Shown: one piece after another, positions 2,915 through 27,895 of the stretch
Position numbering within the stretch: the first letter of the stretch is position 1
Layout: each line of letters begins with the position of its first letter
From: an uncultured virus (IMG/VR IMGVR_UViG_3300027782_000069)
Lineage: Duplodnaviria > Heunggongvirae > Uroviricota > Caudoviricetes
IMG/VR virus record: IMGVR_UViG_3300027782_000069
Reading direction: 5' to 3' (one strand)
Length of the DNA stretch: 64,000 nucleotides
Notes under the pieces: model-generated
Databases searched by the model: none
Seen by the model: only the letters and a program-made list of their open reading frames with translations
Told to the model about the DNA's origin: nothing
Translations under genes and position numbers: made by a program

Positions 2915-3120
2915 AACATCAGACAATGTGGAGATGGTGGTCAAAAGCGTTAGGTGAGAAAGCATCCAAGTGTGATAGGGAGAGTGATAAGATCTCCATC
3001 ATACGAACCTTTATCTTTCTCACTTATCTAATCACTAATCTCTTTATTGTTGCTGGTGTTATTCGACACTGGAATGATAATCAACCTATTCATTATGAAG
3101 TATCAAGTAGTCTATCTTAA
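2911..3120 (+). CDS. small membrane protein
   Basis: ATGA-coupled; WRWWSKALGEKA followed by one TM segment. Confidence 0.65.
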   Translation: MKHQTMWRWWSKALGEKASKCDRESDKISIIRTFIFLTYLITNLFIVAGVIRHWNDNQPIHYEVSSSLS

Positions 3121-3247
3121 ACCAAAGAAGAAAGGAGTTTATTCTAAACAAGTGGCGACGTTTCTTACTATTGAGGATGCAAGTTTCTGGGAACAGGTGA
3201 TTCGGAGGCAGGGATGTAAGGAGAGTGAGATTGTGCCAGTTTTGTAG
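3095..3247 (+). CDS. hypothetical protein
   Basis: MKYQVVYLKPKKKG...; last ORF before the non-coding tract. Confidence 0.6.
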   Translation: MKYQVVYLKPKKKGVYSKQVATFLTIEDASFWEQVIRRQGCKESEIVPVL

Positions 3248-3368
3248 CGATTTATACCAAAAAAAGGTTAAATTGTATTAATAAATGTATTAAAAAACAT
3301 TATGTTGTGTTTTTCATGTGTTCTCAATAGTGTTATATTATTGAGAATCAATAGTGTCTTTATTGAGA

Positions 3369-3466
3369 ATAAATGCCTCTGAGTCTTCTTATAAATGCCT
3401 CTGAGTCTTGTATCTTTTAAACCCTATAAATGCCTCTGAGTCTTCTTATAAATGCCTCTGAGTCTT
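3369..3466 (+). repeat. four exact 19-bp direct repeats ATAAATGCCTCTGAGTCTT (iteron-like)
   Basis: copies start at 3369, 3391, 3426 and 3448 (spacing 22, 35, 22). Confidence 0.95.
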
Positions 3467-3478
3467 GTGACCTAAGCG

Positions 3479-3507
3479 AGCGTAGCATAAGACGCGCAGT
3501 TTGTCAA
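3479..3507 (-). promoter_or_regulatory. minus-strand sigma70-type promoter pointing into the repeats
   Basis: reverse complement reads TTGACA-17 nt-TACGCT with an extended TG. Confidence 0.6.
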
Positions 3508-3544
3508 GTCTCACCGCCGCGAAAATCTCCCAGAACCCACACAG

Positions 3545-3826
3545 ATCTCGACGAGACATTATGAACCTATAATAAGATCATTATGTGAGAATCTCGACGA
3601 GAATACACACAAAAACACATAAATCTCGACGAGAGCACATATATACACATAACAATCTCGACGAGACGCTAGGTTTTATGCTTGCATCTAGTCGAGATCT
3701 GTGCTATACTTAAACCGAACATTCAATCTCGACGAGGATTATGTACGACGACTACGATCTCGACTACACAGTCTCATACGATTACGGACAGGATCTCGAA
3801 GAGTACTCACAGGATCTCGACGAGGA
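3545..3826. repeat. cluster 1 of the ATCTCG-A-CGAGA(T) palindrome
   Basis: copies at 3545, 3591, 3623, 3655, 3686 (ATCTAGTCGAGAT), 3726, and further copies inside ORF 3741. Confidence 0.9.
3682..3710 (+). promoter_or_regulatory. sigma70-type promoter with a palindrome in its spacer
   Basis: TTGCAT-17 nt-TATACT with extended TG; spacer carries ATCTAGTCGAGAT. Confidence 0.65.
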
Positions 3827-3881
3827 TTATACACGAGATGCACACGATTATGAATCGCTTGCATATCGCCACTACGCATGA
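3741..3881 (+). CDS. 46-aa Asp/Tyr-rich acidic protein (not in ORF track)
   Basis: GAGG SD; MYDDYDLDYTVSYDYGQDLEEYSQDLDEDYTRDAHDYESLAYRHYA. Confidence 0.65.
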   Translation: MYDDYDLDYTVSYDYGQDLEEYSQDLDEDYTRDAHDYESLAYRHYA

Positions 3882-3910
3882 TAGAATCTAGACACATCGC
3901 ACGAGACACC

Positions 3911-4060
3911 ATGATCGCACAAAAGCGCCTTGTACAAGTTACACTAGACATCATGTGCTATGATGATCTAGATGTGGAGTATATCAATTGGCGAGACCTA
4001 TTGAAACTCGAAGGTGATGAGGATATTCATTGTAGCGTTAAGGAATACGATCCTTTTTGA
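3911..4060 (+). CDS. acidic hypothetical protein
   Basis: MIAQKRLVQVTLDIMCYDDLD...; alternative start at 3878. Confidence 0.6.
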   Translation: MIAQKRLVQVTLDIMCYDDLDVEYINWRDLLKLEGDEDIHCSVKEYDPF

Positions 4061-4063
4061 TTT

Positions 4064-4101
4064 TGTGCCAGTTCAAAAATTGGCACAAAGTTATATAAAT
4101 A
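4064..4101 (+). promoter_or_regulatory. perfect TGTGCCA-N10-TGGCACA palindrome plus T4 late promoter
   Basis: palindrome 4064-4087; TATAAATA 4094-4101. Confidence 0.7.
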
Positions 4102-4102
4102 A

Positions 4103-4304
4103 TAGCACTTAAGATCTTATAACATAGGGCAGCTCTTGAATTCTCCTACGGGATCCAGAATCAATCTGACAGATATAAGAACTGAGTGCTAGAGTTTAAT
4201 AGGTTAACAGGGTTTAACTATAGGTTTCCCGATATACCAAATGCGGTCGGAATAGAATATCACTAACTCTTGTTTTTGAAGTGTCAAAAATAGGAGGGTT
4301 TTTT
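4103..4304 (+). ncRNA. candidate structured non-coding RNA
   Basis: ORF-free; nested stems, a cUACGg tetraloop, and a terminal hairpin (4267-4296) followed by a U-run. Confidence 0.45.
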
Positions 4305-4323
4305 GGTGTCTGGATATTATCGA

Positions 4324-4400
4324 TGTGCCAGTTGTAGGAGTGGCACAAACATTCACCGCTGGGGTTTGTTTGCGGTTATGTTGGTTTCGTTCCTGAGAAA
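4324..4400 (+). promoter_or_regulatory. palindrome-type early promoter element (family A, degenerate)
   Basis: TGTGCCA-N10-TGGCACA 4324-4347, 29 nt, TATGTT, then TTCGTTCCTGAGA leader. Confidence 0.7.
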
Positions 4401-4408
4401 AGCACCAA

Positions 4409-4645
4409 ATGCGCTCCGTTAAGGTTCATCCTGAGAAGAGCATTCGTTTCACCAAAGATGCTGCATTCTGGTGTGAGATGATTAATCTTTACAAGAAAAT
4501 TTATCCCACCCATTCTTTCAAACAAATCTCAGAACATTTCAAGTTGAGTGAGACAAATACCCGTAGATATTACTATGGGATTCATCACTATAATTGCAAT
4601 AATGGATATACTCAACTGCGCCGAGGTGCCTGTGTGACAATCTGA
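4409..4645 (+). CDS. hypothetical protein, possible helix-turn-helix
   Basis: SFKQISEHFKLSETNTRRYY resembles an HTH pattern. Confidence 0.55.
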   Translation: MRSVKVHPEKSIRFTKDAAFWCEMINLYKKIYPTHSFKQISEHFKLSETNTRRYYYGIHHYNCNNGYTQLRRGACVTI

Positions 4646-4708
4646 TAACTGGCACAAGGGGTGTTGATTAATCCCCCGATCCGTTCTACATTACCTTTGT
4701 TCCTGAGA
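4633..4708 (+). promoter_or_regulatory. palindrome-type early promoter element (family A)
   Basis: TGTGACA-N10-TGGCACA, 30 nt, TACATT 4687-4692, leader with 2 mismatches to the family A consensus. Confidence 0.75.
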
Positions 4709-4714
4709 AATCCA

Positions 4715-4921
4715 ATGACTTTTGTCATCTCCAAACTCAACAATTGCACCTACAAACTGGATGCAAACAATCAACGGGTTTTGATGTATGCTCCCCTGCT
4801 GCCTGATGGTTCATATGAAACCGCAGGATCTGCCTATGATTGGGTAGAATGGGATCGCCTGGATGGTGATATCCTGGCAGAGGCAGATCGCATTCACAAA
4901 CTATTGCTGGAGGCAGTTTGA
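4715..4921 (+). CDS. hypothetical protein
   Basis: ATG follows the repeated leader; MTFVISKLNNCTYKLD... Confidence 0.65.
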   Translation: MTFVISKLNNCTYKLDANNQRVLMYAPLLPDGSYETAGSAYDWVEWDRLDGDILAEADRIHKLLLEAV

Positions 4922-5118
4922 TGGAATTCATTAATTACGTTCGTTCTTTCTATGGACCTGGTGGCATTTATGATATGAATGTTACTGATGCTATGATCAT
5001 CGATGCCACCATACAATACCTTACTACAGAAGGCATATGTTGGTGTAACGGTGATAGTACCGATCGTGAGATGGTACGTGACATTTTGATCGAACGCTTC
5101 GGGTGTGTGCCAACCTGA
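4921..5118 (+). CDS. hypothetical protein
   Basis: TGATG coupling, GGAGG SD; FINYVRSFYGPGGIY...GDSTDREMVRDIL. Confidence 0.7.
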   Translation: MEFINYVRSFYGPGGIYDMNVTDAMIIDATIQYLTTEGICWCNGDSTDREMVRDILIERFGCVPT

Positions 5119-5181
5119 GAACTGGCACAGACCCGCTAGACTTCCTGCCCAATCCGTTCTACATTACATTCGTTCCTGAGA
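5106..5181 (+). promoter_or_regulatory. palindrome-type early promoter element (family A)
   Basis: TGTGCCA-N10-TGGCACA 5106-5129; TAGACT-17 nt-TACATT; exact 30-mer ATCCGTTCTACATTACATTCGTTCCTGAGA. Confidence 0.8.
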
Positions 5182-5190
5182 GACAAACCA

Positions 5191-5661
5191 ATGCTGACTG
5201 GCAACTCCCTTCTGACCCTGGTTGATGAAATGCAGGCACAAGAACCTCCTGTTAAGATGTCTGATATCGTTCGTGCCTGTGGGTATGAGATCGAAGGTAA
5301 ACTGAAGTATACTGAATTCTACACGGAGTTGCTGACTGTGAAAGGTTTGATTGACAAGAAAGAATCTGCAGATATCTCTGATGAGAATCAGGAACTGTAT
5401 GATGAACTTTCTAATCGTTATGGTGAGGATGCCATTGATGCATTCCTGGAGATCTATGATGAGGATGACCTGGGTAACTTTGAAGATGCCTATCAGGGTG
5501 GTTATGAATCGGAGGCAGATTTTGCCGAACAGTTTACCACTGACTGCTACGGTTTGGATATCCCTTCGTTCGTAATCGTTGATTGGGAAGCAACCTGGTA
5601 TCAGGGACTTCGTTATGATTACGATTTCCAGGATGGGTTCGTGTTCGGTAAGAACTGGTAG
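5191..5661 (+). CDS. AbrB-like N-terminus fused to an ArdA-like antirestriction domain
   Basis: LTGxxLL...SDIVRACGY...YTEFYTELL..KG resembles cyanobacterial AbrB-like N-termini; FEDAYQGxYESEADFAE...VDWEATW...DGFVF resembles the ArdA C-terminus; very acidic. Confidence 0.6.
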   Translation: MLTGNSLLTLVDEMQAQEPPVKMSDIVRACGYEIEGKLKYTEFYTELLTVKGLIDKKESADISDENQELYDELSNRYGEDAIDAFLEIYDEDDLGNFEDAYQGGYESEADFAEQFTTDCYGLDIPSFVIVDWEATWYQGLRYDYDFQDGFVFGKNW

Positions 5662-5850
5662 ATCTCGACGAGATGTGTGTGTGATCTCGACTAGATTGCA
5701 CACACATTTATCATAACTCGACGAGATACATACGATATCATACATCTCGACGCACATCTGACGAGATCACATCATACACACACATCTCGATATACTACAC
5801 GAAGACATACATATGTGCTAGAATGTGTGTGTATGATGTGATCTCGTCAG
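5662..5850. repeat. cluster 2 of the ATCTCG-A-CGAGAT palindrome, including a perfect 28-bp inverted repeat
   Basis: copies at 5662, 5684, 5717, 5744; IR arms 5758-5785 and 5823-5850. Confidence 0.9.
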
Positions 5851-6093
5851 GCACCCACCTGAGCCCGCCTTATGTGCAAGAATATGTGCTTCACCCCACT
5901 CACCCCTCCCCACACCATCTAGATGTGCTTTAATTATTATTCTCAATAACAACTCCTTATTGAGAATACAATATACCTTATAGAGGAAAGGGTTTGCCTA
6001 CAGGTTGGAAACACTGATTATCGCAATCCGACCGACAAAGTTACCCAGGTTGAGTGAGATATAATATTAAACTTAAGTGTAGAGTGGGTGACT

Positions 6094-6127
6094 ATAGGGG
6101 AGGGGTGGTGCCCTTCCCTATTTTTTT
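6094..6127 (+). terminator. intrinsic terminator
   Basis: ATAGGGGAGGG...CCCTTCCCTAT followed by a T-run. Confidence 0.7.
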
Positions 6128-6254
6128 ATCTAATGAGTCTTATAAGGACCTCTGATGTTAAGCATTGCAACAATTCCTTGACCTAGGTGCCTGCTGCCGT
6201 ATGATGGATCCGTGGCGGGACATTCTCTACATTTTCCCTCGCCACCAAAGAATA

Positions 6255-6515
6255 ATGAAACTGTTCGCTTTCAAGTTCACTCAAACTCTGATTCTGAATG
6301 TTGCTACCATCGCTGCAATTGTTGTGGGTTTGTATCAGTTTGCTGTTCGTGCCTACAATGACAACAATGGTGCAGAAAAAACACGTAAGGTGATGCAAAC
6401 CGTGCTGATGTTCGTTGACACTCTGCTGCAGTATGGTAAGGTATATTTTGCCGAACCTGCTCCCGCTCCTGTGCCAATCCGTAAGGTGGCACAGCGCCGC
6501 ACTAAAGTTGCCTGA
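6255..6515 (+). CDS. membrane-anchored hypothetical protein
   Basis: TM segment LILNVATIAAIVVGLY; possible promoter TTGACC-16-TATGAT at 6178-6205. Confidence 0.6.
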   Translation: MKLFAFKFTQTLILNVATIAAIVVGLYQFAVRAYNDNNGAEKTRKVMQTVLMFVDTLLQYGKVYFAEPAPAPVPIRKVAQRRTKVA

Positions 6516-6544
6516 TCCGTTCTACATTACATTCGTTCCTGAGA
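6470..6544 (+). promoter_or_regulatory. palindrome-type early promoter element (family A)
   Basis: TGTGCCA-N10-TGGCACA 6470-6493, 29 nt, TACATT; exact family A 30-mer at 6515. Confidence 0.8.
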
Positions 6545-6553
6545 CACCCCACT

Positions 6554-6682
6554 ATGTTTGACGAACTCTGGCAGGAGATTCAAGACTCCCCTGGTGAGAT
6601 CTTTGATATTCCTGAACTTCGTGATCTGGAAGAAGAGAAGTTCAATGTTAATGAATATCTAAACTCTGATTACGATTATTGA
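6554..6682 (+). CDS. 42-aa acidic protein (not in ORF track)
   Basis: MFDELWQEIQDSPGEIFDIPELRDLEEEKFNVNEYLNSDYDY directly after the leader. Confidence 0.65.
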   Translation: MFDELWQEIQDSPGEIFDIPELRDLEEEKFNVNEYLNSDYDY

Positions 6683-6686
6683 AACT

Positions 6687-6833
6687 ATGGAAGTTCTAGA
6701 ACTAAACCAAGCAGAGATTCGTGCCCTGCTGGACCTCATTGAGTTTCACGATGATTGGGATGAATGCAGTGAACAACTGGGGGTGAACGTTGCCCTGCTT
6801 TATGACAAAGTTTCCGCACTTGTAACCTACTGA
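6687..6833 (+). CDS. 48-aa acidic protein (not in ORF track)
   Basis: MEVLELNQAEIRALLDLIEFHDDWDE...; tightly packed. Confidence 0.6.
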   Translation: MEVLELNQAEIRALLDLIEFHDDWDECSEQLGVNVALLYDKVSALVTY

Positions 6834-6961
6834 TGACACCTGAAACATACACTTTCACTGGCGACACTGTTACCTTCCTTGGGTTGGTTGGTGTCATCTC
6901 CACTGCTATTATCGTGGTTACAGTGTTCCGTTCCTATTACAATTCACCCCTAAGAAAATGA
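6833..6961 (+). CDS. 42-aa single-TM protein (not in ORF track)
   Basis: TGATG coupling; MTPETYTFTGDTVTFLGLVGVISTAIIVVTVFRSYYNSPLRK. Confidence 0.6.
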   Translation: MTPETYTFTGDTVTFLGLVGVISTAIIVVTVFRSYYNSPLRK

Positions 6962-7167
6962 CACTTACCACCGAACAATTCAACAAGTTTGTTGAGAACT
7001 ACGTTTCACTTATCATGGAGGGAATGGATTCAGAATCCATTGAAATGATGGTCTATGATTTACTTGTTAAAGAGTACAAGACTTATACTGAAGAGGAGAT
7101 TGTTGGTGAGATTAAAGAACTTTATAGTGATGAACTTGCTGCTGATTTAATGGAGGGTAACTGGTGA
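6958..7167 (+). CDS. acidic hypothetical protein
   Basis: ATGA-coupled 69-aa ORF. Confidence 0.65.
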   Translation: MTLTTEQFNKFVENYVSLIMEGMDSESIEMMVYDLLVKEYKTYTEEEIVGEIKELYSDELAADLMEGNW

Positions 7168-7310
7168 ACTTTCTGACTCCTGATGATCTCCATGCTCTCA
7201 TTGAATTGGTTGAGTCTAACAATCAATACAATGACGATGATGATAAAGAGTTCTGGGATGATGTGCTGATCAGGTTACAACAAACCTATCGGCACTGCCT
7301 GGACGTGTGA
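7164..7310 (+). CDS. 48-aa acidic protein (not in ORF track)
   Basis: GTGA overlap, GGAGG SD; (M)NFLTPDDLHALIELVESNNQYNDDDDKEFWDD... Confidence 0.55.
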   Translation: MNFLTPDDLHALIELVESNNQYNDDDDKEFWDDVLIRLQQTYRHCLDV

Positions 7311-7381
7311 CAGTCACCAAAGTGGCACAAGACCCCTAGACCTGCTCCCTGATCCGTTCTACATTACATTCGTTCCTGAGA
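7306..7381 (+). promoter_or_regulatory. palindrome-type early promoter element (family A)
   Basis: TGTGACA-N10-TGGCACA 7306-7329, 30 nt, TACATT; exact family A 30-mer at 7352. Confidence 0.8.
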
Positions 7382-7390
7382 GACAGACCG

Positions 7391-7570
7391 ATGCAAGTTT
7401 ACGCCGTGATCGCTGGCACATCCTATGAGGGCGAGGACTTCAAGACCCTGCGCCTCTTTGATTGCAAGTCCTCCGCTGTTGCCTACGTTGCCCACCTTGA
7501 GGACCACTTCGATTATGCTGAGATGGAACTCCTCGACGTCTGTATGGACTCTGCCCTGGCAACCGCCTGA
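7391..7570 (+). CDS. 59-aa hypothetical protein (not in ORF track)
   Basis: MQVYAVIAGTSYEGEDFKTLRLFDCKS...; exactly fills the space between two repeat elements. Confidence 0.7.
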   Translation: MQVYAVIAGTSYEGEDFKTLRLFDCKSSAVAYVAHLEDHFDYAEMELLDVCMDSALATA

Positions 7571-7641
7571 GGCACTGGCACACTAAGGGGGCGCAATGCC
7601 CCCTCTGATCCCCTACACTAACCTCAGTTCAATCAACCGCC

Positions 7642-7782
7642 ATGATTCGCTACGAAGTTCGCTATCAGGTGCCCTACAACGCTTGCGAGTGGCGCTCTCA
7701 GTTCTTCCGCACCCTTGCGGAGGCAGAGAGCATGGTCGCCTTCTACCGCTCCTGCGGATCGCCTGCTCACCTGGCACCCTGA
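7642..7782 (+). CDS. 46-aa hypothetical protein (not in ORF track)
   Basis: MIRYEVRYQVPYNACEWRSQFFRTLAEAESMVAFYRSCGSPAHLAP after a family B leader. Confidence 0.7.
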   Translation: MIRYEVRYQVPYNACEWRSQFFRTLAEAESMVAFYRSCGSPAHLAP

Positions 7783-7843
7783 ACCAATGGGAACGGCAGC
7801 GCCCTAAAGACTGCCACCTATCCAAACTATCCAAACCATTCGA

Positions 7844-7942
7844 ATGACCTTTGACCTTGCTGTTGCCCTGCTGAACCGTGCTAGCACTGCTGCCGAACTG
7901 CTGGCGATCCTGGACTCCATTGCTGCTGATCAGGACGCCTGA
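7844..7942 (+). CDS. 32-aa helical peptide (not in ORF track)
   Basis: MTFDLAVALLNRASTAAELLAILDSIAADQDA; stop lies inside the repeat. Confidence 0.55.
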   Translation: MTFDLAVALLNRASTAAELLAILDSIAADQDA

Positions 7943-8012
7943 GGCACTGGCACACTAGGGGGAGGCACGTGCCCCCGACCGACTACACTAACCTCAGTTC
8001 ACAAGACGTCAA

Positions 8013-8252
8013 ATGAAAGTCCAACCCATCGGCAGCAACCAGACCGAAGTCTCTCTGGCGGACGGGACTGAGGTCCTGATCTCCTACCAGACCCCCGTTG
8101 CCGCCCTGGTGCCTGGTAAGGGGTGGATCCGCACCGCGACGAAGTGGAGCGCCACGACAACTAAGCACGTTAATGCCTGGTTGCGGAAGAACTGCGGCGG
8201 CACTGTGACCGAAGTTGATCAATGGGAACTGGATCAATTGATCGCTTTCTAG
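8013..8252 (+). CDS. conserved phage hypothetical protein
   Basis: SYQTPVAA...WSATTTKHVNAWL motif; cassette position. Confidence 0.75.
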   Translation: MKVQPIGSNQTEVSLADGTEVLISYQTPVAALVPGKGWIRTATKWSATTTKHVNAWLRKNCGGTVTEVDQWELDQLIAF

Positions 8253-8335
8253 GACGGTTGAGGGGGTGGCACACCGCCGCCCCCTGATCCCCTCCCCGAC
8301 CGACTACACTAACCTCAGTTCACTCAAACGAACCG

Positions 8336-8527
8336 ATGACCGTTCGCACCCACGTCCTGCCCCTGGACCTCTGCACCGTGACCCTCACTGAGGCACAGTG
8401 GAGCACCATCCGCACCGCTGTCCTCAGCATCGCTTGCGACTGCCGCATCGCTGGCAAGGGCACCGACGCAGACTATTACCTGAAGGCATACAACGACCTG
8501 AAAGCAGCGATGGGGATGGACGCCTGA
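8336..8527 (+). CDS. hypothetical protein
   Basis: fills one cassette; stop lies inside the repeat. Confidence 0.7.
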   Translation: MTVRTHVLPLDLCTVTLTEAQWSTIRTAVLSIACDCRIAGKGTDADYYLKAYNDLKAAMGMDA

Positions 8528-8601
8528 GGCACTGGCACAAGGGGGGCAGGGATGCCCCTCTGACCCTGTAGACTAACCATATCAACCAAAGGAGAGGGAC
8601 C

Positions 8602-8829
8602 ATGAGCAACGGATTCAACGGATGGGCAAACTGGGAGACCTGGAACGTCGCCCTCTGGATTCAAAACGACGAAGGTCTCTATGCTGCTGCCCGCCAGTGC
8701 CAAGGATCCTATGCTGCCCTGCTGGAGATGCTCTGGGAGTGTGGCAGCAAAGAGACCCCTGACGGGTGCCGCTGGAACGACCTTAAGGTTGACGCTGAGG
8801 CGATCTGTGAAATGATGACCGATCTCTGA
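8602..8829 (+). CDS. conserved phage hypothetical protein
   Basis: NGWANWETWNVALWIQNDEGLY motif; AGGAG SD. Confidence 0.75.
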   Translation: MSNGFNGWANWETWNVALWIQNDEGLYAAARQCQGSYAALLEMLWECGSKETPDGCRWNDLKVDAEAICEMMTDL

Positions 8830-8896
8830 ACCGCACACTGGGGGGGCACTGCTCCCCCTTTCTGCGTCTACAATGACCTCAGTTCACACGACCCCG

Positions 8897-9094
8897 ATGC
8901 CTGCCACCGCTACCCTAAACACCTCTGAGGTCCGCCTTGCCCTGGTGGGGTGGAGGACCGAACTGCTGACCCTGGGTTCCCAGTTCCCTGACGTCTTCCC
9001 TGCCCCCACCATCACCGACCGCATCGCTGCCTTGGACGCTGCCCTGCTTGCTATCGACTGCAGCAGCACCGTCACCCTGATGCCAGACGCCTAG
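8897..9094 (+). CDS. hypothetical protein
   Basis: ATG after the variant family B leader; ends PDA-stop like its neighbours. Confidence 0.65.
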   Translation: MPATATLNTSEVRLALVGWRTELLTLGSQFPDVFPAPTITDRIAALDAALLAIDCSSTVTLMPDA

Positions 9095-9167
9095 GTGGCA
9101 CAATGGGGGGCAGAGACCCCCCACTCCATCGACTACACTAACCTCAGTTCACAAGACAAGACACCTC

Positions 9168-9344
9168 ATGACCTTCAACCCCTACGTTGCCACCCTGATT
9201 GAAATGGGATACGACGAACAGGACTGCCGCAACGTTGCCGCTGCTGGTTTGGATGCCACGTATCCCCGAACCATCCATGGGCGGACCTTTCAAACCAAGG
9301 CAGAATATGACGACGCTCTGGCGGAATTCCTGAACGGGATCTGA
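9168..9344 (+). CDS. 58-aa hypothetical protein (not in ORF track)
   Basis: MTFNPYVATLIEMGYDEQDCRNVAAAG... fills one cassette. Confidence 0.7.
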   Translation: MTFNPYVATLIEMGYDEQDCRNVAAAGLDATYPRTIHGRTFQTKAEYDDALAEFLNGI

Positions 9345-9392
9345 GGGGGCCCCCCCGATCTGCTACAATACTCTCAACCGCAACCGACTCCC

Positions 9393-9584
9393 ATGGCACT
9401 GACCGTCTTTGCAATTTTCACCTGCGGCACCGACTATTATGATCGGGAAGAACTGGACTCCCTCTATGCCTCAGAGGAGGACGCAGAGCGCCATGCTGCT
9501 AACCTTCGTCTGATGATCGACGAATATGTGGAGGGGTCCCCCCGCTTCGCTAGCGTTCGGATCAGACCTCAGACCGTTCGCTGA
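9393..9584 (+). CDS. hypothetical protein
   Basis: fills one cassette. Confidence 0.7.
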   Translation: MALTVFAIFTCGTDYYDREELDSLYASEEDAERHAANLRLMIDEYVEGSPRFASVRIRPQTVR

Positions 9585-9619
9585 TCTGCTACAATACTCT
9601 CAACCGACACCCCCCTCCA

Positions 9620-9841
9620 ATGATCGGAATCCCCATCACCACCCACGGCAGCACTGCCATCGACACCCTGACGGTTGACCCCATCACGGGGCGGGTTGCG
9701 GTTCGCTTCCTTTCTCACTGGACCCGCCGCCCTTACATCTTTAAGGTCTCCCGCCGTGCTGCCCTTGCTCTGACCCTCAACACCGACGTCTCCCTAGGGA
9801 AGTGGGTTAACCTTCACTGCCGCCCGAACGCTGCCCGCTGA
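9620..9841 (+). CDS. hypothetical protein (weak KTSC-like pattern)
   Basis: STAI...VRF...YIF.V...SLGKWVN resembles KTSC-type proteins. Confidence 0.6.
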   Translation: MIGIPITTHGSTAIDTLTVDPITGRVAVRFLSHWTRRPYIFKVSRRAALALTLNTDVSLGKWVNLHCRPNAAR

Positions 9842-9879
9842 TCTGCTACAATATCAAAGCAACCGAACCGAACCGAACC

Positions 9880-10032
9880 ATGATCCTGCAGTTCCGCATC
9901 CTCTCCCTCGATTCCAAAGGCACGTGCCGCATTGAGGGTCTCTATGATGACCTCCCTTCTGCCGAACGTTGCCTGCAGGATTTCGTCGCTTGCTTCCCCT
10001 CATGCAAGTTTACGATCGTGCCAAATACCTGA
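9880..10032 (+). CDS. 50-aa hypothetical protein (not in ORF track)
   Basis: MILQFRILSLDSKGTCRIEGLYDDLPSAERC... fills one cassette. Confidence 0.65.
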   Translation: MILQFRILSLDSKGTCRIEGLYDDLPSAERCLQDFVACFPSCKFTIVPNT

Positions 10033-10089
10033 GGGGTCGCCCCCCCCCGACCTGCTGCAATATCAAAGCAACCAACCGAACCGAATCAA

Positions 10090-10278
10090 ATGGCACTCTT
10101 CAACATAGCATCGGACCTCAAGACCCGCCAGACCATATGGGTAGGCACCAACGTAGCAAAGGGTATGGGTCAGGCAAATTCCCATACCAGAAAATGGAAA
10201 GGATGGGATGGTGACGGGTTGCCCGCTGCTGAACTGGCAGATCTGCACACTGACTACCGTGGACCTCAGGATCGGTAG
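10090..10278 (+). CDS. hypothetical protein
   Basis: follows the family C leader. Confidence 0.65.
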   Translation: MALFNIASDLKTRQTIWVGTNVAKGMGQANSHTRKWKGWDGDGLPAAELADLHTDYRGPQDR

Positions 10279-10357
10279 GGGTCAATCCCCCACCTATTCG
10301 TGACCGTTCGTGCGTAACTCTCCCCCCCCTTCGTGGGGGATTGACCCCTACCGATCC
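10269..10357. repeat. perfect 25-bp inverted repeat with a 39-nt loop
   Basis: GGATCGGTAGGGGTCAATCCCCCAC (10269-10293) and its reverse complement (10333-10357). Confidence 0.95.
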
Positions 10358-10390
10358 CTTCGTAACCAACCCACCCCAATCTCCTTCGTT

Positions 10391-10588
10391 ATGAACTCCA
10401 CCCTCACTACCATTGACGGCGTTCAATTCAAGATCACCCGACTGCCTGTTGCTCATGGTCCCTCAGCACTCCGTTGGGCAGATCGGATCAAAGGCGGCAG
10501 CAGCAGGGTCCGCACTCATGGCGGTGCCGCTGGCAGCAGGGGGACCAGCATGAGCACCAGCGCCAGTGCCCTGGGCGACGTGCGCTGA
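10391..10588 (+). CDS. basic Gly/Ser-rich hypothetical protein
   Basis: MNSTLTTIDGVQFKITRLPVA...; last ORF of the GC-rich block. Confidence 0.55.
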   Translation: MNSTLTTIDGVQFKITRLPVAHGPSALRWADRIKGGSSRVRTHGGAAGSRGTSMSTSASALGDVR

Positions 10589-10802
10589 GGCAGTGCCGCC
10601 ATTCGTGTGTTCGTGAGAGGCAGTGCCCCCGCCCTTGGGGGGCGTGGCGGCGGGCGCCGTATTTGAAAACCCAACACTACCCTAACCTACAAAGTGTTAC
10701 CCAAGCGATCATTATATAACACTCAAAAACAAAAAAATCCGCCCATAAAAAAATACGCCCACAACCCACACATATTATAAAAGTTTACATTACTATATAA
10801 AA

Positions 10803-24900: not shown

Positions 24901-27895
24901 ACAATTTGTTTATCCTATAGTACTTAATTCAAATCAATTCAAACTTGCAACCAAACAAGAATATGCAAATGCCGGAGTTTTTGTTACCTTTACTTCTTAT
25001 GGATCTGGAAATGCACATAAGTTGGAGATGAATAAAAAAGTTGAGAGAAGTATTATTTCTCTTGATGGCATTATTCAACAACCAATTACATATACTCCCG
25101 TTAGACATACTTTAGCAAATAATACTGGACAAATTAGTATTGGATCTAGTATGTTCAGTTTGAGTGGTATTTCAACTTTACAACCAAGAGATGTTTTAAA
25201 AATTGATAACGAATATATGAAGGTTGTTTCAGTTGGATTTGGATCTACTGCAAGTGGACCAATTACTGGAATAGGGACATTTCCACTTGTTAAGGTTATT
25301 AGAGGATCTGTTGGATCTTCGGCAACTTCTCACACTGATGGTTCTACAGCTCAAATTTATAGAGGATCATTTAATATTGTTGGTAGTAAGGTTTACTTCT
25401 TAGATCCACCAAAAGGAAACACTCGTTCCAGAAGAGATACTAGTAACCTACCATATACAAAGGCAGAGTTTTCTGGAAGAGTTTTCCTTAGAAAAAATTA
25501 CTCAACAAATATTCTTTTTGATGATATTTCCGATCAGTTTACTGGTATTGGAAAGACCTATACATTATCTGTTCAGGGTGCTAATACTACTGGTATTACC
25601 ATTGGTAATGGTATTCTGTTTATTAATGGAGTTTTTCAAACCCCAACAACTACAAATAATGCAGGAAATAACTACACATTAACTGAAAATGCAGGTATTT
25701 CTAGTGTCATATTCAGTGGTATTACTTCAGCAAATGGACAATATATTCAATCAGAGTTTGATATTAATCAAAACCAACTTCCACGTGGAGGACTAATCGT
25801 TTCTCTTGGATCTACTCCAGGATTAGGATATGCACCATTGGTTGGATCTTCTGTTACCGCAGTCATCAATCCAGCAACTGGAAGTATTGTATCCGTTGGT
25901 CTTGGATCTACAGATATTCTTGGATCTGGATATAGAGGAATTGTCTCTATTGGTGTTACTCAATATGGTGGATTTATTGGTTCTGCTGCCACTATCACAG
26001 CAACAGTTGGTGCTGGTGGAACATTAAGTTTCAATGTTTCTTATGGTGGAACAGGATATACAAATCCATACATTCAAATTCCCCAACCTTCATATCAAAA
26101 TCTAGAAGTTATCGGAGTTTCCAGATTGGGAATTGGAACAACAACTAATACAGGAAAAAATCTACTAGTAACAGTAGATATTGGTTCAAGTAAAACAACA
26201 GGAATAGGATCAACATTATTCCAAGTTTCTTCTTTTAGTATTGCAAGATCTGGACATTCTTTCAAAGTTGGAGATGTATTCAAACCCGTTGGTCTTGTGA
26301 CTGCAAAAGGATTAAGTTCACCCATTAATGATTTTGAATTAACTGTTGTAGAAACGTTTAATGATTATTTTTCTGCTTGGCAGTTTGGTGAAATGGATTA
26401 TATTGACTCGGTTAGATTTTTACAAGATGGGTCGAGAAAAAGATTCCCATTATACTACAATGGTCAATTATTGAGTTTTGAAGTTGATCCTGCAGATTCA
26501 GTTTCAGCAGAGATTGATCTAAATGCAGTTCTCATTATCTTCATTGATGGCGTTCTTCAAGTTCCAGGAACAGCATATCAGTTTGAAGGTGGAACTTCAT
26601 TCACATTCACTCAACCACCAAAGGAAAGTGATAAGATTGATATTTTCTTCTATCTGGGAACCAGAGGTGTTGATATTGAGATTATTGATGTCAATGAAAC
26701 AATTAAATTTGGCGACAATCTCACCGTATATAAAAATCCAAATTATCTTAATTCAATTTCTCAAGACAATTCAAGAATCATTTTAGATATTATTGGATCA
26801 GATCTTGTAGAAACTGATGTCTATGTTGGTAGGGGAGTTGATGCAGATAACTATAAACCTATGGAATGGGAAAAACAAAAAGTTGATAAAATTATTAAAG
26901 GAGATTATATCTACAAAACTAGGGATTCTATAGAATCTCAAATTTATCCAACTGCAAAGATTATTAAAGATCTTAATAGTTCTTCATCTGAAATATTTGT
27001 AGATAATGCAGAGTTCTTCAATTATGAAGAAAATAATTATGGTATTACAATTAATACTTTTGATAGTTTGATTGTTGCTGGAAATGATCCTGTTGCCGCA
27101 GCAATGAGTGCAACCGTTTCTGTTGGGGGAACTATTCAGTCTATTATAGTAACTAATCCTGGATATGGATATAGCACTTCTCCAGTTACTGTTAAAATCT
27201 CAAATCCTAAAAAAATTGGAGTTGGTATTGGAACAACTGCTACAGCATCTGCAACAATTGTTAATGGTGGAGTTACTTCAGTAACTATCACAAATCCTGG
27301 TTTTGGATATACAATTGCTCCACAAATTATTATTGAAACTCCAAAATATAGTCATGAACTTGTAACTGATATTGCATATGTTCAAGGATTCTCGGGTATT
27401 ATTACAGGAATAACTACATCAGTAGGAGCAGGTGGACACCCATTAGCACTCAAGTTTTTCTTTAGAGCAAATGCTGCCACTGCAAGTGATCTTATTGCAA
27501 ATTATCCCGTTCTTATTGTTGATACAAAGGTTGGAAGTGGTGTTACTTCAGTTGGAACTTCAGACTCTTCTATTGTTGGTATCGGTACATTATTCCTCGA
27601 TAACGTCTATAATGTAAGTAGTATTAGTAATTTGGGTCCAGATGCTGTAATGGTATGTAATGTAAAAACTTCAAGTAACATTATTGGCATTAATACGTAT
27701 GGATCTCTAACTAATCCTTTAGGAAGAATATCTTGGGGACGTTTATATGACCTAAAACGTTCATCTTCGCCAGTTTCTATTGGAGTTACTGGACTTGTAG
27801 TAGATGCTGGATTATCAACGTTCCCAACAATTCAAAGAAGAAAGTTTGGATTGAGGAATAGTGGAGCGATTAGAAAGATTTCAAATACGATATAA
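15962..27895 (+). CDS. gp7: giant baseplate wedge initiator, gp7-like (3977 aa)
   Basis: lies between gp6 and gp8; FYQAKG..SFRILFNVLYG, DNDYYQNLSY...LHPAG; repeated beta-rich modules. Confidence 0.75.
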   Translation: MFESDFEKRVQINEIIENQLPEFILEESPKTADFLKQYYISQEYQGGSVDIAENLDQYLKLDNLTPEVITGSTTLSYDISSSAGVVTVTSTKGFPAQYGLLKINDEIITYTGVTTNTFTGCVRGFSGITNYSSGISSYTDSVNNNDLVFSTSSSDSHSKNEKVTNLSSLFLQEFYKKLKYFLTPGLENSDFVSDLDVSNFIKEARSFYQAKGIQESFRILFNVLYGEDARVIDLESFLIKPSTAKFIRREVLITELISGDDPTRLVGQTIKKSTDERTQASVSEVEILTRTNKTYYKVSLFVGYNEKDLIEGTFTIPGKTKALETVSIGSSIISVDSTIGFGQTGNIISGNNKIYYTSKSVNQFFGCSGVTEQISQISDIKSDEVIYGYEGGDTSKKVELRITGVLSKFTSTSDIYLADEKELISIKNIGKVIKNPSVDRTYEEIFANSWIYNTSSRYQVFTISGSTFTLLSVIDKSSLKVGDTVDILKRGSNIVVASNATVSTVNLPLNQVILSNIYGFVYDPYADYDIRRNIKKATSLGAELQYGNSKIISDVLNVYTENNDYGYVASNSLPSYTITQNISESVLAEANGSYLQGYNTQTYRYSILSFTSNVPFLNGDAIIYKPSNLTIPGLISGERYFVKLVGTYPTNQIKLYISPSFLSGDSYVEFDTLPTGSGSHSFILEKDAARFVGSKNILRKFPLNQSLSVSGHVPSNTTRLGLLCNGVEIVSSKSDDKIYYGPLSEFNVLNSGKDYDVVNPPNITISSPSIGTTALVVPVISGIVTAVLVDPQDFDVDQILSVSLTGGNGSGCLLQPVVGQRYRELQFDSRDIFFGGGIDFSDETITFTSNHNLKDGEPIIYSQNGNNPIGVGTFKGSNNFTSTSTLISGSKYYAKVINTKTIRLYNKLSDYSAGINTIGITTSNTSGIHKFRTISKKTLRSITVLNSGEGYQFRKLYVKSSGISTYYDTVSFKNHGFNTGDLVEYSTTGTSVSGLSTSNQYYILKSDENSFKLVDAGIGASITSNYIRSKVVNLTSTGSGYHIFKYPDISVNINVSYGSTYSGNFTLTPVISGKIIDAYLYESGSDYGSNILNLQRKPVITLKNGKDAELKPIIVDGRISSVQVMSKGSEYYSTPDIIVTGSGSGAILRPVIENNKLVNVVVINSGIGYTATNTSLQVNPKGSGALFDCRIRSLTLNRQFKYQTEYFSDFGDTLSYNLLGYSQDFGESVFSDNGLNHSPIIGWSYDGNPIYGPYGYSTPNDNSSALKILKTSYTLDANNINNRPSGFDAGFFIEDYVYTNSGDLDICNGRFAKTPEFPNGVYAYFAGVSTSVITNKLEPAYPYFIGDFYRSSLIDENFILDQSFDFNNSGLARNTFPYKVQDEYADNDFIIESNEIIKQLSSIESVTKGSVDSLEVLGGGDGYKIGDYTVFDDNNTNGTGIKAVVSTLVGKDILSIDTNLQRYENCIFIFDGTSSIAVYQSTYNQLNDGDNVIISGLSSSILNLNGTFKVGVSTEKIKLFKEIPSNVIPTGDVEDIYVSQIPNSISIGSSLSVDGEILKVLNTYSEGSILRVKRFGVGSAHTLGSFVNILSNRFSINTQTPQFDSTLNDKIYFNGQQSVGLGTTSGMAIQVTYTIGETSKQISIPTQSIYLPNHPFKNGQRLTLTKNPSVDSFIVGNAPSGSTYFLPDNFTATSTVYVIAKSKDYIGLTTVVGLTTNTNGLYFYSNGSNDYEYLLQSNFNQVTGNVDRIISSIRTSEPHGLQNGDTIKLEVTPNTSVGIGTSTSIKVKYNSEFAKLILNPVGFTSSQINNVTNKITLTSHNFKTGDKVLYSSTDKIASGLNTGIYYVYKIDSNTIHLTETYYDTQLDSPNIVSIIGIGGSQHSLGLVNPPIEVIRKSNLVFDLSDSSLINSKFKLFYDKDFNNEFLSTKENSSFNIVGFGTVGVTQTSSLTLNYSDGFPSKLYYNLERSGYISTSDSDVKDSSEIIFKNSTYNGTYNVFGIGSTTFNISLTNVPESYSYTPSNCDKIEYSASSENIVGSVKSLRLLSKGFNYKKLPKFVKIQSENGNNANILPLSNSIGRIKDVRILDIGYEYPSDKTLRPEAFISPIITLEKSDTIKEVNVLYGGRNYLSPPNLIVFDPVSNTVVDSSSLGCEVPNSTIFKVNILGPIYGLESTNQRIIAINNSNGVGISSMITSASGIVTCILSTPLNGFTKQPFVIGDEIFVEGVERYTSDGTGFNSSDYNYQFFNISLYENTNPAKLEFNISGLTTNPGFAKTYQSGYATIINKNIYPIFENIQTRSSFELGEQLYTDIGSGFVEKDIYITDSRKDYIKIKGTYDLSKGERIKGRKSGVIASIKDISSNSGKFEIDYSSRQDYGWEDNIGKLNEDYQVTTDNDYYQNLSYTIKSSIEYDKFIDPVNRLLHPAGLKNFADTSIESTVNGSVSYASTTNDVVILDISEEKRVDNINNFDFGLDYDIRQDKSKYLKFKNRKLTDYTKCKTNRVLIIDDISSRFSSKGYQDLFTDICTIDDNFEKYLVQIINPDNFETQLTELIVLSTENDVLTLEKGSIYSKNKLGDLEAQIDTFDRKTLRFTPYELYDSDHDIKVLKLNFNTDLSGIGTQSIGFISLTGSNNIISSGTTSTIASYSLSTFDSIFANIQIFNTITRKINYLEVLLDYDGTNTYISEYYFDSGSESSSQRYVGILTATANPITNRISLDFTNDQAESLLIRSNVVGFGSTVSGIGTYRFRIPGQLDELERSARLESTYSVGISTRTVCNLKYDLDSGLKSLVKVSCGKTSSLHQVMLINDKSDSYILQYPFVSTGSTSGIGTFGSERSGNVLSLKFYPDPIFNSNIEVQSYNEILYTENDFVNENPPILYGSATQSLFLSSYDGINGNRANKTDFDLKFNGTSIYFKTFDPTNSLQLQASTGIFTIPNHFFNTGEEINYTPESSYASIGASAVGIGSTANYLGIVTNRLPQFVYPIVLNSNQFKLATKQEYANAGVFVTFTSYGSGNAHKLEMNKKVERSIISLDGIIQQPITYTPVRHTLANNTGQISIGSSMFSLSGISTLQPRDVLKIDNEYMKVVSVGFGSTASGPITGIGTFPLVKVIRGSVGSSATSHTDGSTAQIYRGSFNIVGSKVYFLDPPKGNTRSRRDTSNLPYTKAEFSGRVFLRKNYSTNILFDDISDQFTGIGKTYTLSVQGANTTGITIGNGILFINGVFQTPTTTNNAGNNYTLTENAGISSVIFSGITSANGQYIQSEFDINQNQLPRGGLIVSLGSTPGLGYAPLVGSSVTAVINPATGSIVSVGLGSTDILGSGYRGIVSIGVTQYGGFIGSAATITATVGAGGTLSFNVSYGGTGYTNPYIQIPQPSYQNLEVIGVSRLGIGTTTNTGKNLLVTVDIGSSKTTGIGSTLFQVSSFSIARSGHSFKVGDVFKPVGLVTAKGLSSPINDFELTVVETFNDYFSAWQFGEMDYIDSVRFLQDGSRKRFPLYYNGQLLSFEVDPADSVSAEIDLNAVLIIFIDGVLQVPGTAYQFEGGTSFTFTQPPKESDKIDIFFYLGTRGVDIEIIDVNETIKFGDNLTVYKNPNYLNSISQDNSRIILDIIGSDLVETDVYVGRGVDADNYKPMEWEKQKVDKIIKGDYIYKTRDSIESQIYPTAKIIKDLNSSSSEIFVDNAEFFNYEENNYGITINTFDSLIVAGNDPVAAAMSATVSVGGTIQSIIVTNPGYGYSTSPVTVKISNPKKIGVGIGTTATASATIVNGGVTSVTITNPGFGYTIAPQIIIETPKYSHELVTDIAYVQGFSGIITGITTSVGAGGHPLALKFFFRANAATASDLIANYPVLIVDTKVGSGVTSVGTSDSSIVGIGTLFLDNVYNVSSISNLGPDAVMVCNVKTSSNIIGINTYGSLTNPLGRISWGRLYDLKRSSSPVSIGVTGLVVDAGLSTFPTIQRRKFGLRNSGAIRKISNTI

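Follow-up and report, generated by a model that had tools for sequence, protein, structure and literature searches.

What are the short repeats that stand before the small genes of a T4-like cyanophage, and do they take part in the coming and going of those genes? The question arises from a 64,000-nucleotide (nt) stretch of DNA from an uncultured virus (IMG/VR record IMGVR_UViG_3300027782_000069), the whole of which is called here the window. Between positions 4324 and 10278 it carries an array of about two dozen small genes with products of 32 to 156 amino acids (aa), most of them behind their own copy of a repeat. The initial annotation had sorted about 15 such intergenic elements into three families (A, B and C), likened them to promoter-stem-loop cassettes (PeSLs) and proposed an integrase-free, integron-like system; we count 16 elements between 4324 and 10089. 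We consider it likely that they are composite regulatory cassettes of the PeSL kind, which also serve as patches for recombination in the early region of a freshwater T4-like cyanomyovirus. The proposal of the initial annotation is partly supported, since natural variants speak for recombination at the repeats and promoter function is predicted from the sequence. The comparison with PeSLs has been borne out by the layout, by the upstream stop codon within the unit and by recombination joints at the units. The integron analogy and the argument that neighbouring elements are the most alike do not hold up.

A composite unit repeated along the array

Matches to each family were compared with shuffled sequence, using 100 shuffles for the expectation of family A. 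Exact copies of the family A 30-mer stand at 5152, 6515 and 7352, and one with 2 mismatches at 4679; with up to 3 mismatches allowed, this makes 4 matches, where the shuffles gave 0.00. At a further annotated variant, near 4385, the leader half TTCGTTCCTGAGA is present (4386-4398), but the rest of the 30-mer is not matched. Of the family B 19-mer there are exact copies at 7613, 7983, 8304 and 9133 and one with 2 mismatches at 8868 (5 matches, 0.02 expected), and the variant annotated near 8569 exists as a looser copy, TGTAGACTAACC. The family C 14-mer is exact at 9357, 9583 and 9840, with 2 mismatches at 10049; its 6 matches in all (0.69 expected) include two extra 2-mismatch copies on the minus strand, at 26791 and 53183, that look like chance. 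The annotated positions were otherwise recovered as given, and the cargo open reading frames (ORFs) are mutually unrelated, as had been claimed: an all-against-all comparison of 28 proteins gave no pair at E < 0.01. Allied to the 16 elements are three further units: at 4064 a non-coding one headed by a dyad, at about 6178-6254 a weak variant, and before ORF 10391-10588 one of a different kind. The exact B 19-mer also occurs in L093, L094 and L099 (labels of this kind are our own names for contigs and loci compared with the window), three near-identical AT-rich metagenome contigs that otherwise show no likeness to the window; the match is probably due to chance and these contigs were set aside from the analysis.

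Units of families A and B open with a dyad of 24 base pairs (bp), TGTG(C/A)CA-N10-TGGCACA, whose best copies read TGTGCCAGTT-N4-AACTGGCACA. Its right arm, the TGGCACA box, occurs 23 times in the window, where 6.1 are expected, and 16 of the 23 copies lie within 4064-9102. The stop codon of the upstream gene usually sits in the dyad centre or left arm. Inspection by eye showed stops in no more than one or two frames, and the idea that the dyad supplies them in all three was dropped. From the end of the box to a -10-like hexamer the distance is 29-31 nt at each of the 11 + strand sites with a box between 4081 and 9096. In many copies this interval includes a G/C hairpin with a -35-like TTGNNN in its loop, 17 bp from the -10; most A copies carry a TTGNNN or TAGACN hexamer at that distance upstream. 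The -10 hexamers are TACATT (A), TACACT (B) and TACAAT (C) and start 28-34 nt before the ATG. A TACAnT-like hexamer is found at 15 of the 16 elements, the copy at 8569 having TAGACT. If transcription starts about 7 nt past the hexamer, the leader would be A/C-rich and 16-21 nt long. C units have no box, and their TGCTACAAT is a TGn-extended -10. From the sequences and folds, a G/C hairpin or a G-run/C-run was read at 10 of the 16 elements, two of which (C9357 and C10049) were counted by their runs, left unpaired by the minimum-energy fold. The three families appear to be architectural variants: A with box, -35-like hexamer and TACATT; B with box, hairpin and TACACT; C with a TGn-extended -10 and no box.

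The unit is conserved in relatives. A 24-mer of the A type, with two positions left free in the query, is exact in 82 IMG/VR stretches, in 54 distinct contexts and before at least 4 different genes. In an alignment of 52 copies picked by this 24-mer, TGGCACA, which was not part of the selection, is at least 90% conserved. In the same 52 copies, 5 of the 6 hairpin pairs vary on both sides, with alternative stems such as GGGTGCC/GGCACCC and GGCAC/GTGCC. The dyad is not maintained as a helix; because its fifth pair is unpaired in 34 of the 52 copies, it is better explained as a DNA site than as an RNA stem. Modules running from box to -10 occur genome-wide and with strand bias in three related contigs and in the marine isolate Sf-CH11 (18/5, 21/2, 12/1 and 9/2 by strand, 0-1 in a reversed-pattern control). 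Given this genome-wide spread, the module would be a general promoter class of these phages and not specific to the array. The A element was not found in named phages in a 50,697-record collection, which gave 6 weak partial matches at E 0.07-0.9.

Two side observations concern the module elsewhere. In Synechococcus phage Sf-CH11 (L086), the box, a spacing of 29-31 nt and TATAAT precede small genes at 3018-4900, and one module points into 3585-4145, where all annotation is on the other strand, a sign that a small gene may have been missed. In G003, the contig behind L016, a second module cluster lies at 111-120 kb; it is of another sub-type (...GCCTTATAAT), often with hairpin and T-run. Judging from this cluster, phages of the group may carry several module arrays.

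Gene gain, loss and exchange at the units

The initial annotation had named in advance a test of its proposal, namely whether breakpoints of gene gain and loss fall inside the repeats, and the outcome was positive for several events in relatives and metagenome contigs. An X10 contig, 97% like the window, joins 7972 to 8294 and so skips 321 bp, exactly the cassette of ORF 8013-8252, with 30 letters shared at the joint. In L100, which is 99.9% identical to the window, ORF 9880-10032 is missing and a hybrid C element unites the upstream half of the 9840 copy with the leader of the 10049 copy, the crossover lying within 12-16 nt of exact identity. L085 is 98.5% identical over 7359-9143, a block that begins inside the A leader at 7359; in it an unrelated gene replaces ORF 9168-9344, one joint lying in B element 9133 and the other within C element 9357, in its leader. 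In L095 (100% identical flanks) and L096 (99.97%), ORF 4921-5118 is replaced by an unrelated 62-codon ORF with its own dyad and hairpin, the right joint falling at 5148 in an A element, and an X5 Logan contig shows the same replacement. An X11 contig passes from 4661 to 6516, from one A element into another, and has 18 other letters in between. Position 10353, the right end of an inverted repeat, is a recurrent right-hand breakpoint: two joints and the L085 match, three independent variants, take up homology again there.

Of thirteen joints listed, 7 touch an element with one end or both, and 4 with both. None of those listed leads backwards, though circles would not show in contigs. Elements make up 16.9% of the stretch and hold 11 of the 26 joint ends (2.5-fold enrichment, binomial 0.002), figures to be read with care, since the 26 ends depend on one another and repeats are places where contigs often break. 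Among the 79 related loci there are 62 gene orders, mostly colinear with gains and losses, and some genes have moved. By a hand tally of gap lists, the next gene of the window follows directly (gap <120 nt) at 18 of 179 element-bearing junctions versus 49 of 163 element-less ones; the raw figures for the next gene in order are 35/179 and 61/163. One gene can also stand behind differing element types: g12 follows an A element here and a B-type element elsewhere, g13 follows B here and C elsewhere, and g15 has an A-like element in L040.

The crossover points bear on the proposed integron-like mechanism. In a true system of that kind, a site-specific recombinase would act on a core site, perhaps the 24-bp dyad, and release cassette circles. 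In its favour, the dyad is strongly conserved, closes each cassette at its 3' end and has not been preserved as an RNA helix, and Arbiol et al. speculated (PMC2839356) that PeSL stem-loops might be targeted by a protein. We nevertheless hold this mechanism to be highly improbable. In keeping with the annotation, no integrase or recombinase was found among 30 large ORFs scanned against PHROGs, and 6 further ORFs gave no Pfam match at all. Crossovers vary in position, some lying in the -10/leader region and others in the hairpin or the C leader, and C elements recombine though they have no dyad. Every cassette, moreover, has its own predicted promoter. Variable crossover points of this kind are to be expected from homologous or microhomology recombination, unlike in integrons.

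A number of observations weigh against the PeSL-like proposal, and some of them favour other explanations. The repeats might be regulatory signals only, selected alike, while the genes turn over by illegitimate or gene-boundary recombination; joints would then fall in repeats because these fill most of the intergenic space. The A-type 24-mer is conserved in its 82 stretches without within-genome homogenisation (7.37 versus 7.84 differences over 38 nt, permutation p 0.14). As A copies are no closer within than between genomes, their likeness reflects selection on function and not local or frequent conversion. Modules are found far beyond the array. Element-less junctions also break, 70% of them by the tight tally, and L015 has precisely lost ORF 6687-6833 with no element near; cassettes can thus turn over without the repeats. 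In the L095/L096 swap, the left joint lies at a plain gene boundary. The related loci, besides, are not phylogenetically independent. Against these points, the 321-bp deletion with its 30 shared letters and the hybrid C element of L100 bear the marks of homology-guided crossover, breaks affect 90% of the element-bearing junctions as against 70% of the element-less ones, and joint ends are enriched in elements. On balance we find it unlikely that the repeats are signals and nothing else.

The variants come from assembled contigs and not from single molecules, and could be artefacts of assembly across short repeats: the 30-nt B repeat equals k-1 of a 31-mer graph, and the L100 joint lies 41 nt from the contig end. 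We give this very little credence. The X10 contig derives from another strain, differing at 16/617 and 5/356 positions, and X10 shows hardly any depth (0.32) across the cassette that is skipped. An assembler would not be misled by so short an identity as that at the L100 crossover, both L085 and L096 gain new coding sequence through their swaps, and the variant at ORF 4921-5118 is found in two IMG contigs as well as in the X5 contig.

The order of the families tells less than it first seemed to. In the window the three families stand in blocks that are not interleaved, as annotated, but in relatives B and C types alternate (e.g. BBBCBCBC). What holds generally in relatives is an A block on the left and a B/C block on the right, and 24 of 75 loci have a single B- or C-type match left of the A block. 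The notion that neighbouring elements are most alike fails across the lineage on both counts, the interleaving of B and C and the A copies being no closer within genomes.

Further points concern the predicted promoters. Among the public runs matching 4300-10300, no RNA run is on record. A promoter scan with the E. coli consensus called none of the 16 elements, and of its 17 matches only that at 6178 lies near an array gene; the elements are thus not textbook sigma-70 promoters and we infer their function. A Shine-Dalgarno sequence is present only in the leader of ORF 8602-8829 (AGGAG) and missing from the other 15, whereas published PeSLs have it. Leaders without Shine-Dalgarno are common in cyanobacteria. 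The hairpin is missing in 6 of the 16 elements.

Taking this together, we still favour composite units that regulate and recombine, and hypothesize that they work as follows. Each unit would close the upstream small gene, with the stop codon in or beside the 24-bp dyad. The G/C hairpin, where present, would stop or damp read-through, and its loop would carry the -35-like TTGNNN. A promoter for the host RNA polymerase (-10 TACAnT) and a short leader without Shine-Dalgarno would then serve the next small gene. The units would also provide 20-40 bp near-identical tracts in direct orientation, between which the phage's homologous-recombination machinery may occasionally cross over; UvsY and gp46/47 homologues are encoded in the window, and a UvsW homologue is counted with them. 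Such crossovers, within one genome or between co-infecting relatives, would delete, insert or swap one-gene cassettes.

A different reading takes the three sub-families as regulatory classes and not as a record of recombination. The A and B promoters would need a trans-acting factor, from the host or the virion, that reads the best-copy form of the dyad, and the C promoters would be independent of it through their extended -10. The invariant A leader (ACATTYGTTCCTGAGA) could be a second control site on early mRNAs, e.g. for translational shut-off. The dyad would then have a triple role as gene end, operator and homology patch, and the base composition of the B/C block would stem from foreign origin or recombination-linked GC bias, not from codon adaptation. 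As a conjunction of a dyad-reading factor, factor-independent C promoters, leader control and this GC origin, the reading is possible, though we regard it as doubtful.

The array in its genomic setting

The gene content of the window points to a freshwater T4-like cyanomyovirus. PHROGs matches among the 30 large ORFs include baseplate wedge, neck, terminase, sheath, tube, portal, prohead protease, scaffold, major capsid, UvsY, helicase, a gp55-like late sigma factor and gp47/46, all on the + strand. The nearest named phages are P-SSM2, P-SSM5 and S-SRM01, with 73-79% identity over structural genes, and the public runs that match the stretch are freshwater or lake metagenomes. The array lies immediately upstream of the baseplate module and would be a hyperplastic early-gene region. 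The window gave neither an Rfam match at gathering scores nor a tRNA.

The genome has about 33% GC, while 7000-10600 has 52-60%. The GC-rich block with the B and C cassettes (7391-10660, + strand) reaches 0.81 at third codon positions. Sixteen core genes have a GC of 0.46/0.36/0.25 at codon positions 1/2/3, the A-block ORFs 0.53/0.32/0.44 and the B/C-block ORFs 0.58/0.48/0.69; the GC of the DNA between genes is 0.44 in the A block and 0.59 in the B/C block. Because intergenic DNA and codon position 2 are GC-rich too, codon adaptation alone is insufficient to account for the block. The relative L043 shares this GC-rich block. Candidate origins are foreign DNA, codon matching to a GC-rich host and recombination-linked bias.

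All units described below lie on the + strand. Upstream of the first element, a non-coding unit (4064-4303) opens with a dyad, TGTGCCAGTT-N4-AATTGGCACA at 4064-4087, followed 30 nt later by a -10-like TATAAC, and ends in a canonical terminator (4267-4296) plus T-run. There is no + strand ORF of at least 30 aa in 4128-4300, and the fold of the unit has a z of -1.1. It looks like a cassette with a small RNA as cargo instead of an ORF. The segments 4118-4303 and 5985-6128 are candidate phage small RNAs, both with a hairpin and T-run terminator and without Rfam match; the fold of the latter, also non-coding, has a z of -3.0.

Element 1 (4324-4408) has a dyad at 4324-4347, a -10-like TATGTT at 4377 and the A-type leader already mentioned, and precedes ORF 4409-4645 (78 aa). 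In element 2 (family A, 4633-4714) the dyad at 4633-4656 is centred on the upstream stop; a G4/C5 hairpin encloses TTGATT, the 2-mismatch 30-mer spans 4679-4708, and ORFs 4715-4921 and 4921-5118 follow. Element 3 (family A, 5106-5190), with a dyad at 5106-5129, TAGACT-17 bp-TACATT and the exact 30-mer at 5152-5181, precedes ORF 5191-5661. This ORF encodes the largest cargo protein (156 aa), which is ArdA-like: it matches an anti-restriction PHROG at E 9.5e-16, and Pfam ArdA at 23.2 bits, below the 27-bit cut-off. It gives the claim that the cargo consists of host-takeover genes its sole footing.

A non-coding gap follows (5661-6254), with palindromes of the ATCTCGNCGAGAT type at 5661-5728, an inverted repeat and a structured unit ending in a terminator at 6094-6121. 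A sigma-70-like TTGACC-16-TATGAT at 6178-6205 stands before ORF 6255-6515. The 13-nt palindrome ATCTCGNCGAGAT has nine copies over 3544-3827 and 5661-5728, in CA-rich non-coding DNA, and is also found upstream of homologues of ORF 7642-7782 in L007, L016, L047 and L049; the copies may form a protein-binding array or an origin-like region. The inverted repeat at 5757-5851 is near-perfect, with a stem of about 30 bp (-51.8 kcal/mol, z -8.4), and has microRNA-model matches only. Such matches, obtained at a loose threshold and far below the model thresholds on two long inverted repeats, were read as hairpin artefacts.

The dyad of element 5 (family A, 6470-6553) lies at 6470-6493, within the coding end of ORF 6255-6515; the exact 30-mer is at 6515-6544, and a five-ORF run (6554-7310) without internal elements follows. 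The first ORF of this run, 6554-6682, encodes a very acidic 42-aa peptide (MFDELWQEIQ...) without family match. No other cargo gene is kept as widely: nearly all related loci have it, usually as the first gene behind an A element. Element 6 (family A, 7306-7390), with a dyad at 7306-7329, the upstream TGA within its left arm and the exact 30-mer at 7352-7381, precedes ORF 7391-7570 and marks the boundary between the AT-richer and GC-rich blocks. In L085 (7080-6950, minus strand) about 85 bp of inserted DNA with a long imperfect hairpin (GTTGAGGGAAGCGG...CCGCTCTCAAC) interrupt the A element ahead of the homologue of ORF 7391-7570, between a first TACATT box and a second TACACTACATTCG box.

Family B begins with element 7 (7564-7641; box 7576-7582, G5/C5 hairpin, exact 19-mer 7613-7631), before ORFs 7642-7782 and 7844-7942. 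Element 8 (7936-8012; box 7948-7954, hairpin, exact 19-mer 7983-8001) precedes ORF 8013-8252. Element 9 (8255-8335; exact 19-mer 8304-8322), whose box at 8267-8273 sits inside a G5/C5 hairpin, precedes ORF 8336-8527; these two are the partners in the 321-bp deletion. Element 10, a B variant (8521-8601; box 8533-8539, hairpin, TAGACT, AGGAG), stands before ORF 8602-8829 (DUF7249), and element 11, another variant (8830-8896), has a G7/C5 hairpin, no exact box and the 2-mismatch 19-mer at 8868-8886, before ORF 8897-9094. Element 12 (family B, 9081-9167; dyad-like 9081-9102, G6/C6 hairpin, exact 19-mer 9133-9151) precedes ORF 9168-9344 and holds the left joint of the L085 swap.

The right joint of that swap lies in element 13 (family C, 9342-9392), which has a G5C7 run and the TGn-extended -10 and lacks the TGGCACA box. 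It precedes ORF 9393-9584, with which a protein scan found only two contigs, both already known relatives. Element 14 (family C, 9580-9619), with neither hairpin nor box, precedes ORF 9620-9841, and element 15 (family C, 9837-9879) precedes ORF 9880-10032; in both, the repeat (9583, 9840) takes in the last codon and stop of the upstream gene, CGC TGA. Element 16 (10030-10089), a C variant (TGCTGCAAT) with a G4/C9 run, precedes ORF 10090-10278 and is the partner of element 15 in the L100 deletion. Beyond it, 10269-10390 holds an inverted repeat and a different leader (CCTTCGTAACCAACC...) before ORF 10391-10588; the inverted repeat itself (10269-10357, 25-bp stem, z -8.7) begins in the last codons of ORF 10090-10278.

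Relation to known systems

Shuffling of the PeSL type has so far been documented for T4 relatives of enterobacteria and vibrios, and is seldom tied to cyanophages in the open literature searched. If our proposal is true, a PeSL-like mechanism extends to abundant T4-like cyanophages of lakes. Promoter repeats that double as recombination patches would then explain the fast turnover of small early genes, including an anti-defence gene of the ArdA-like kind, and a defined promoter module could be used for finding the factor that reads it. As the concept is already known from PeSLs, the gain is modest.

The array resembles integrons in its one-gene units bounded by repeats and in the gain, loss and reordering of these units. 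It differs from them, and the annotated integron-like mechanism falls, in the promoter of each unit, in that no integrase and no attC-like folded site was found, and in crossovers that occur at differing points of the elements. An early-gene regulatory element has reportedly been described in T4-like cyanophages by Doron et al. (2016). The box-plus-(-10) module of the window, whose layout recurs in the marine isolate Sf-CH11, is probably of the same promoter class. To our knowledge, cassette shuffling is not part of that report.

The dyad also recalls CGRE1, the palindrome of the yfr2 promoter bound by PlmA/PMM1637 (PMC6191309), in being a palindromic box at some distance upstream of a -10, in a promoter of cyanobacterial type without a good -35. 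According to the text of that paper, CGRE1 is 21-22 nt long, has GTTG or GTTA flanks, starts at -55 to -57 and belongs to marine picocyanobacteria, whereas the phage dyad has 24 nt, TGTG/CACA flanks and a position of about -66 to -43 from the predicted start. An identity of the two was not confirmed: length, flanks and position differ by that text, and a scan for the strict dyad form, a pattern that may be too strict, gave 15 matches in 185,579 species genomes, none of them cyanobacterial.

PeSLs remain the closest comparison. In phages RB49 and phi1, the original report (PMC2839356) describes sigma-70-like early promoters joined to polyG/polyC stem-loops, in five positional subclasses, some of which overlap the -35; these stem-loops lie beside upstream stop codons, were shown to terminate transcription and flank indels and mini-circles. 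Variants in T4/PST and KVP40/nt-1 are given by Comeau et al. 2014 (PMC4122927), and S-PM2 is argued, in a further paper (PMC4503421), to be without dense PeSLs. The window array differs in its cyanobacterial host and in the dyad ending in TGGCACA, 29-31 nt before the -10, in place of an AT-rich upstream region. Its -10 is TACAnT and not TATAAT, 15 of 16 leaders have no Shine-Dalgarno, 6 of 16 units have no stem-loop, and a GC-rich block makes up half of the array although the genome is AT-rich. PeSL activity and mini-circles were measured in the known phages, whereas the window array is known from DNA contigs alone. Shared by both are repeated intergenic units in a T4-like hyperplastic region, with one or few small ORFan genes per unit, a host-type promoter (predicted here), polyG/polyC stem-loops able to overlap the -35, the upstream stop codon within the unit, and indel or swap joints between close relatives that fall in the units. 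A cyanophage version of PeSLs is thus the best-supported reading of the array.

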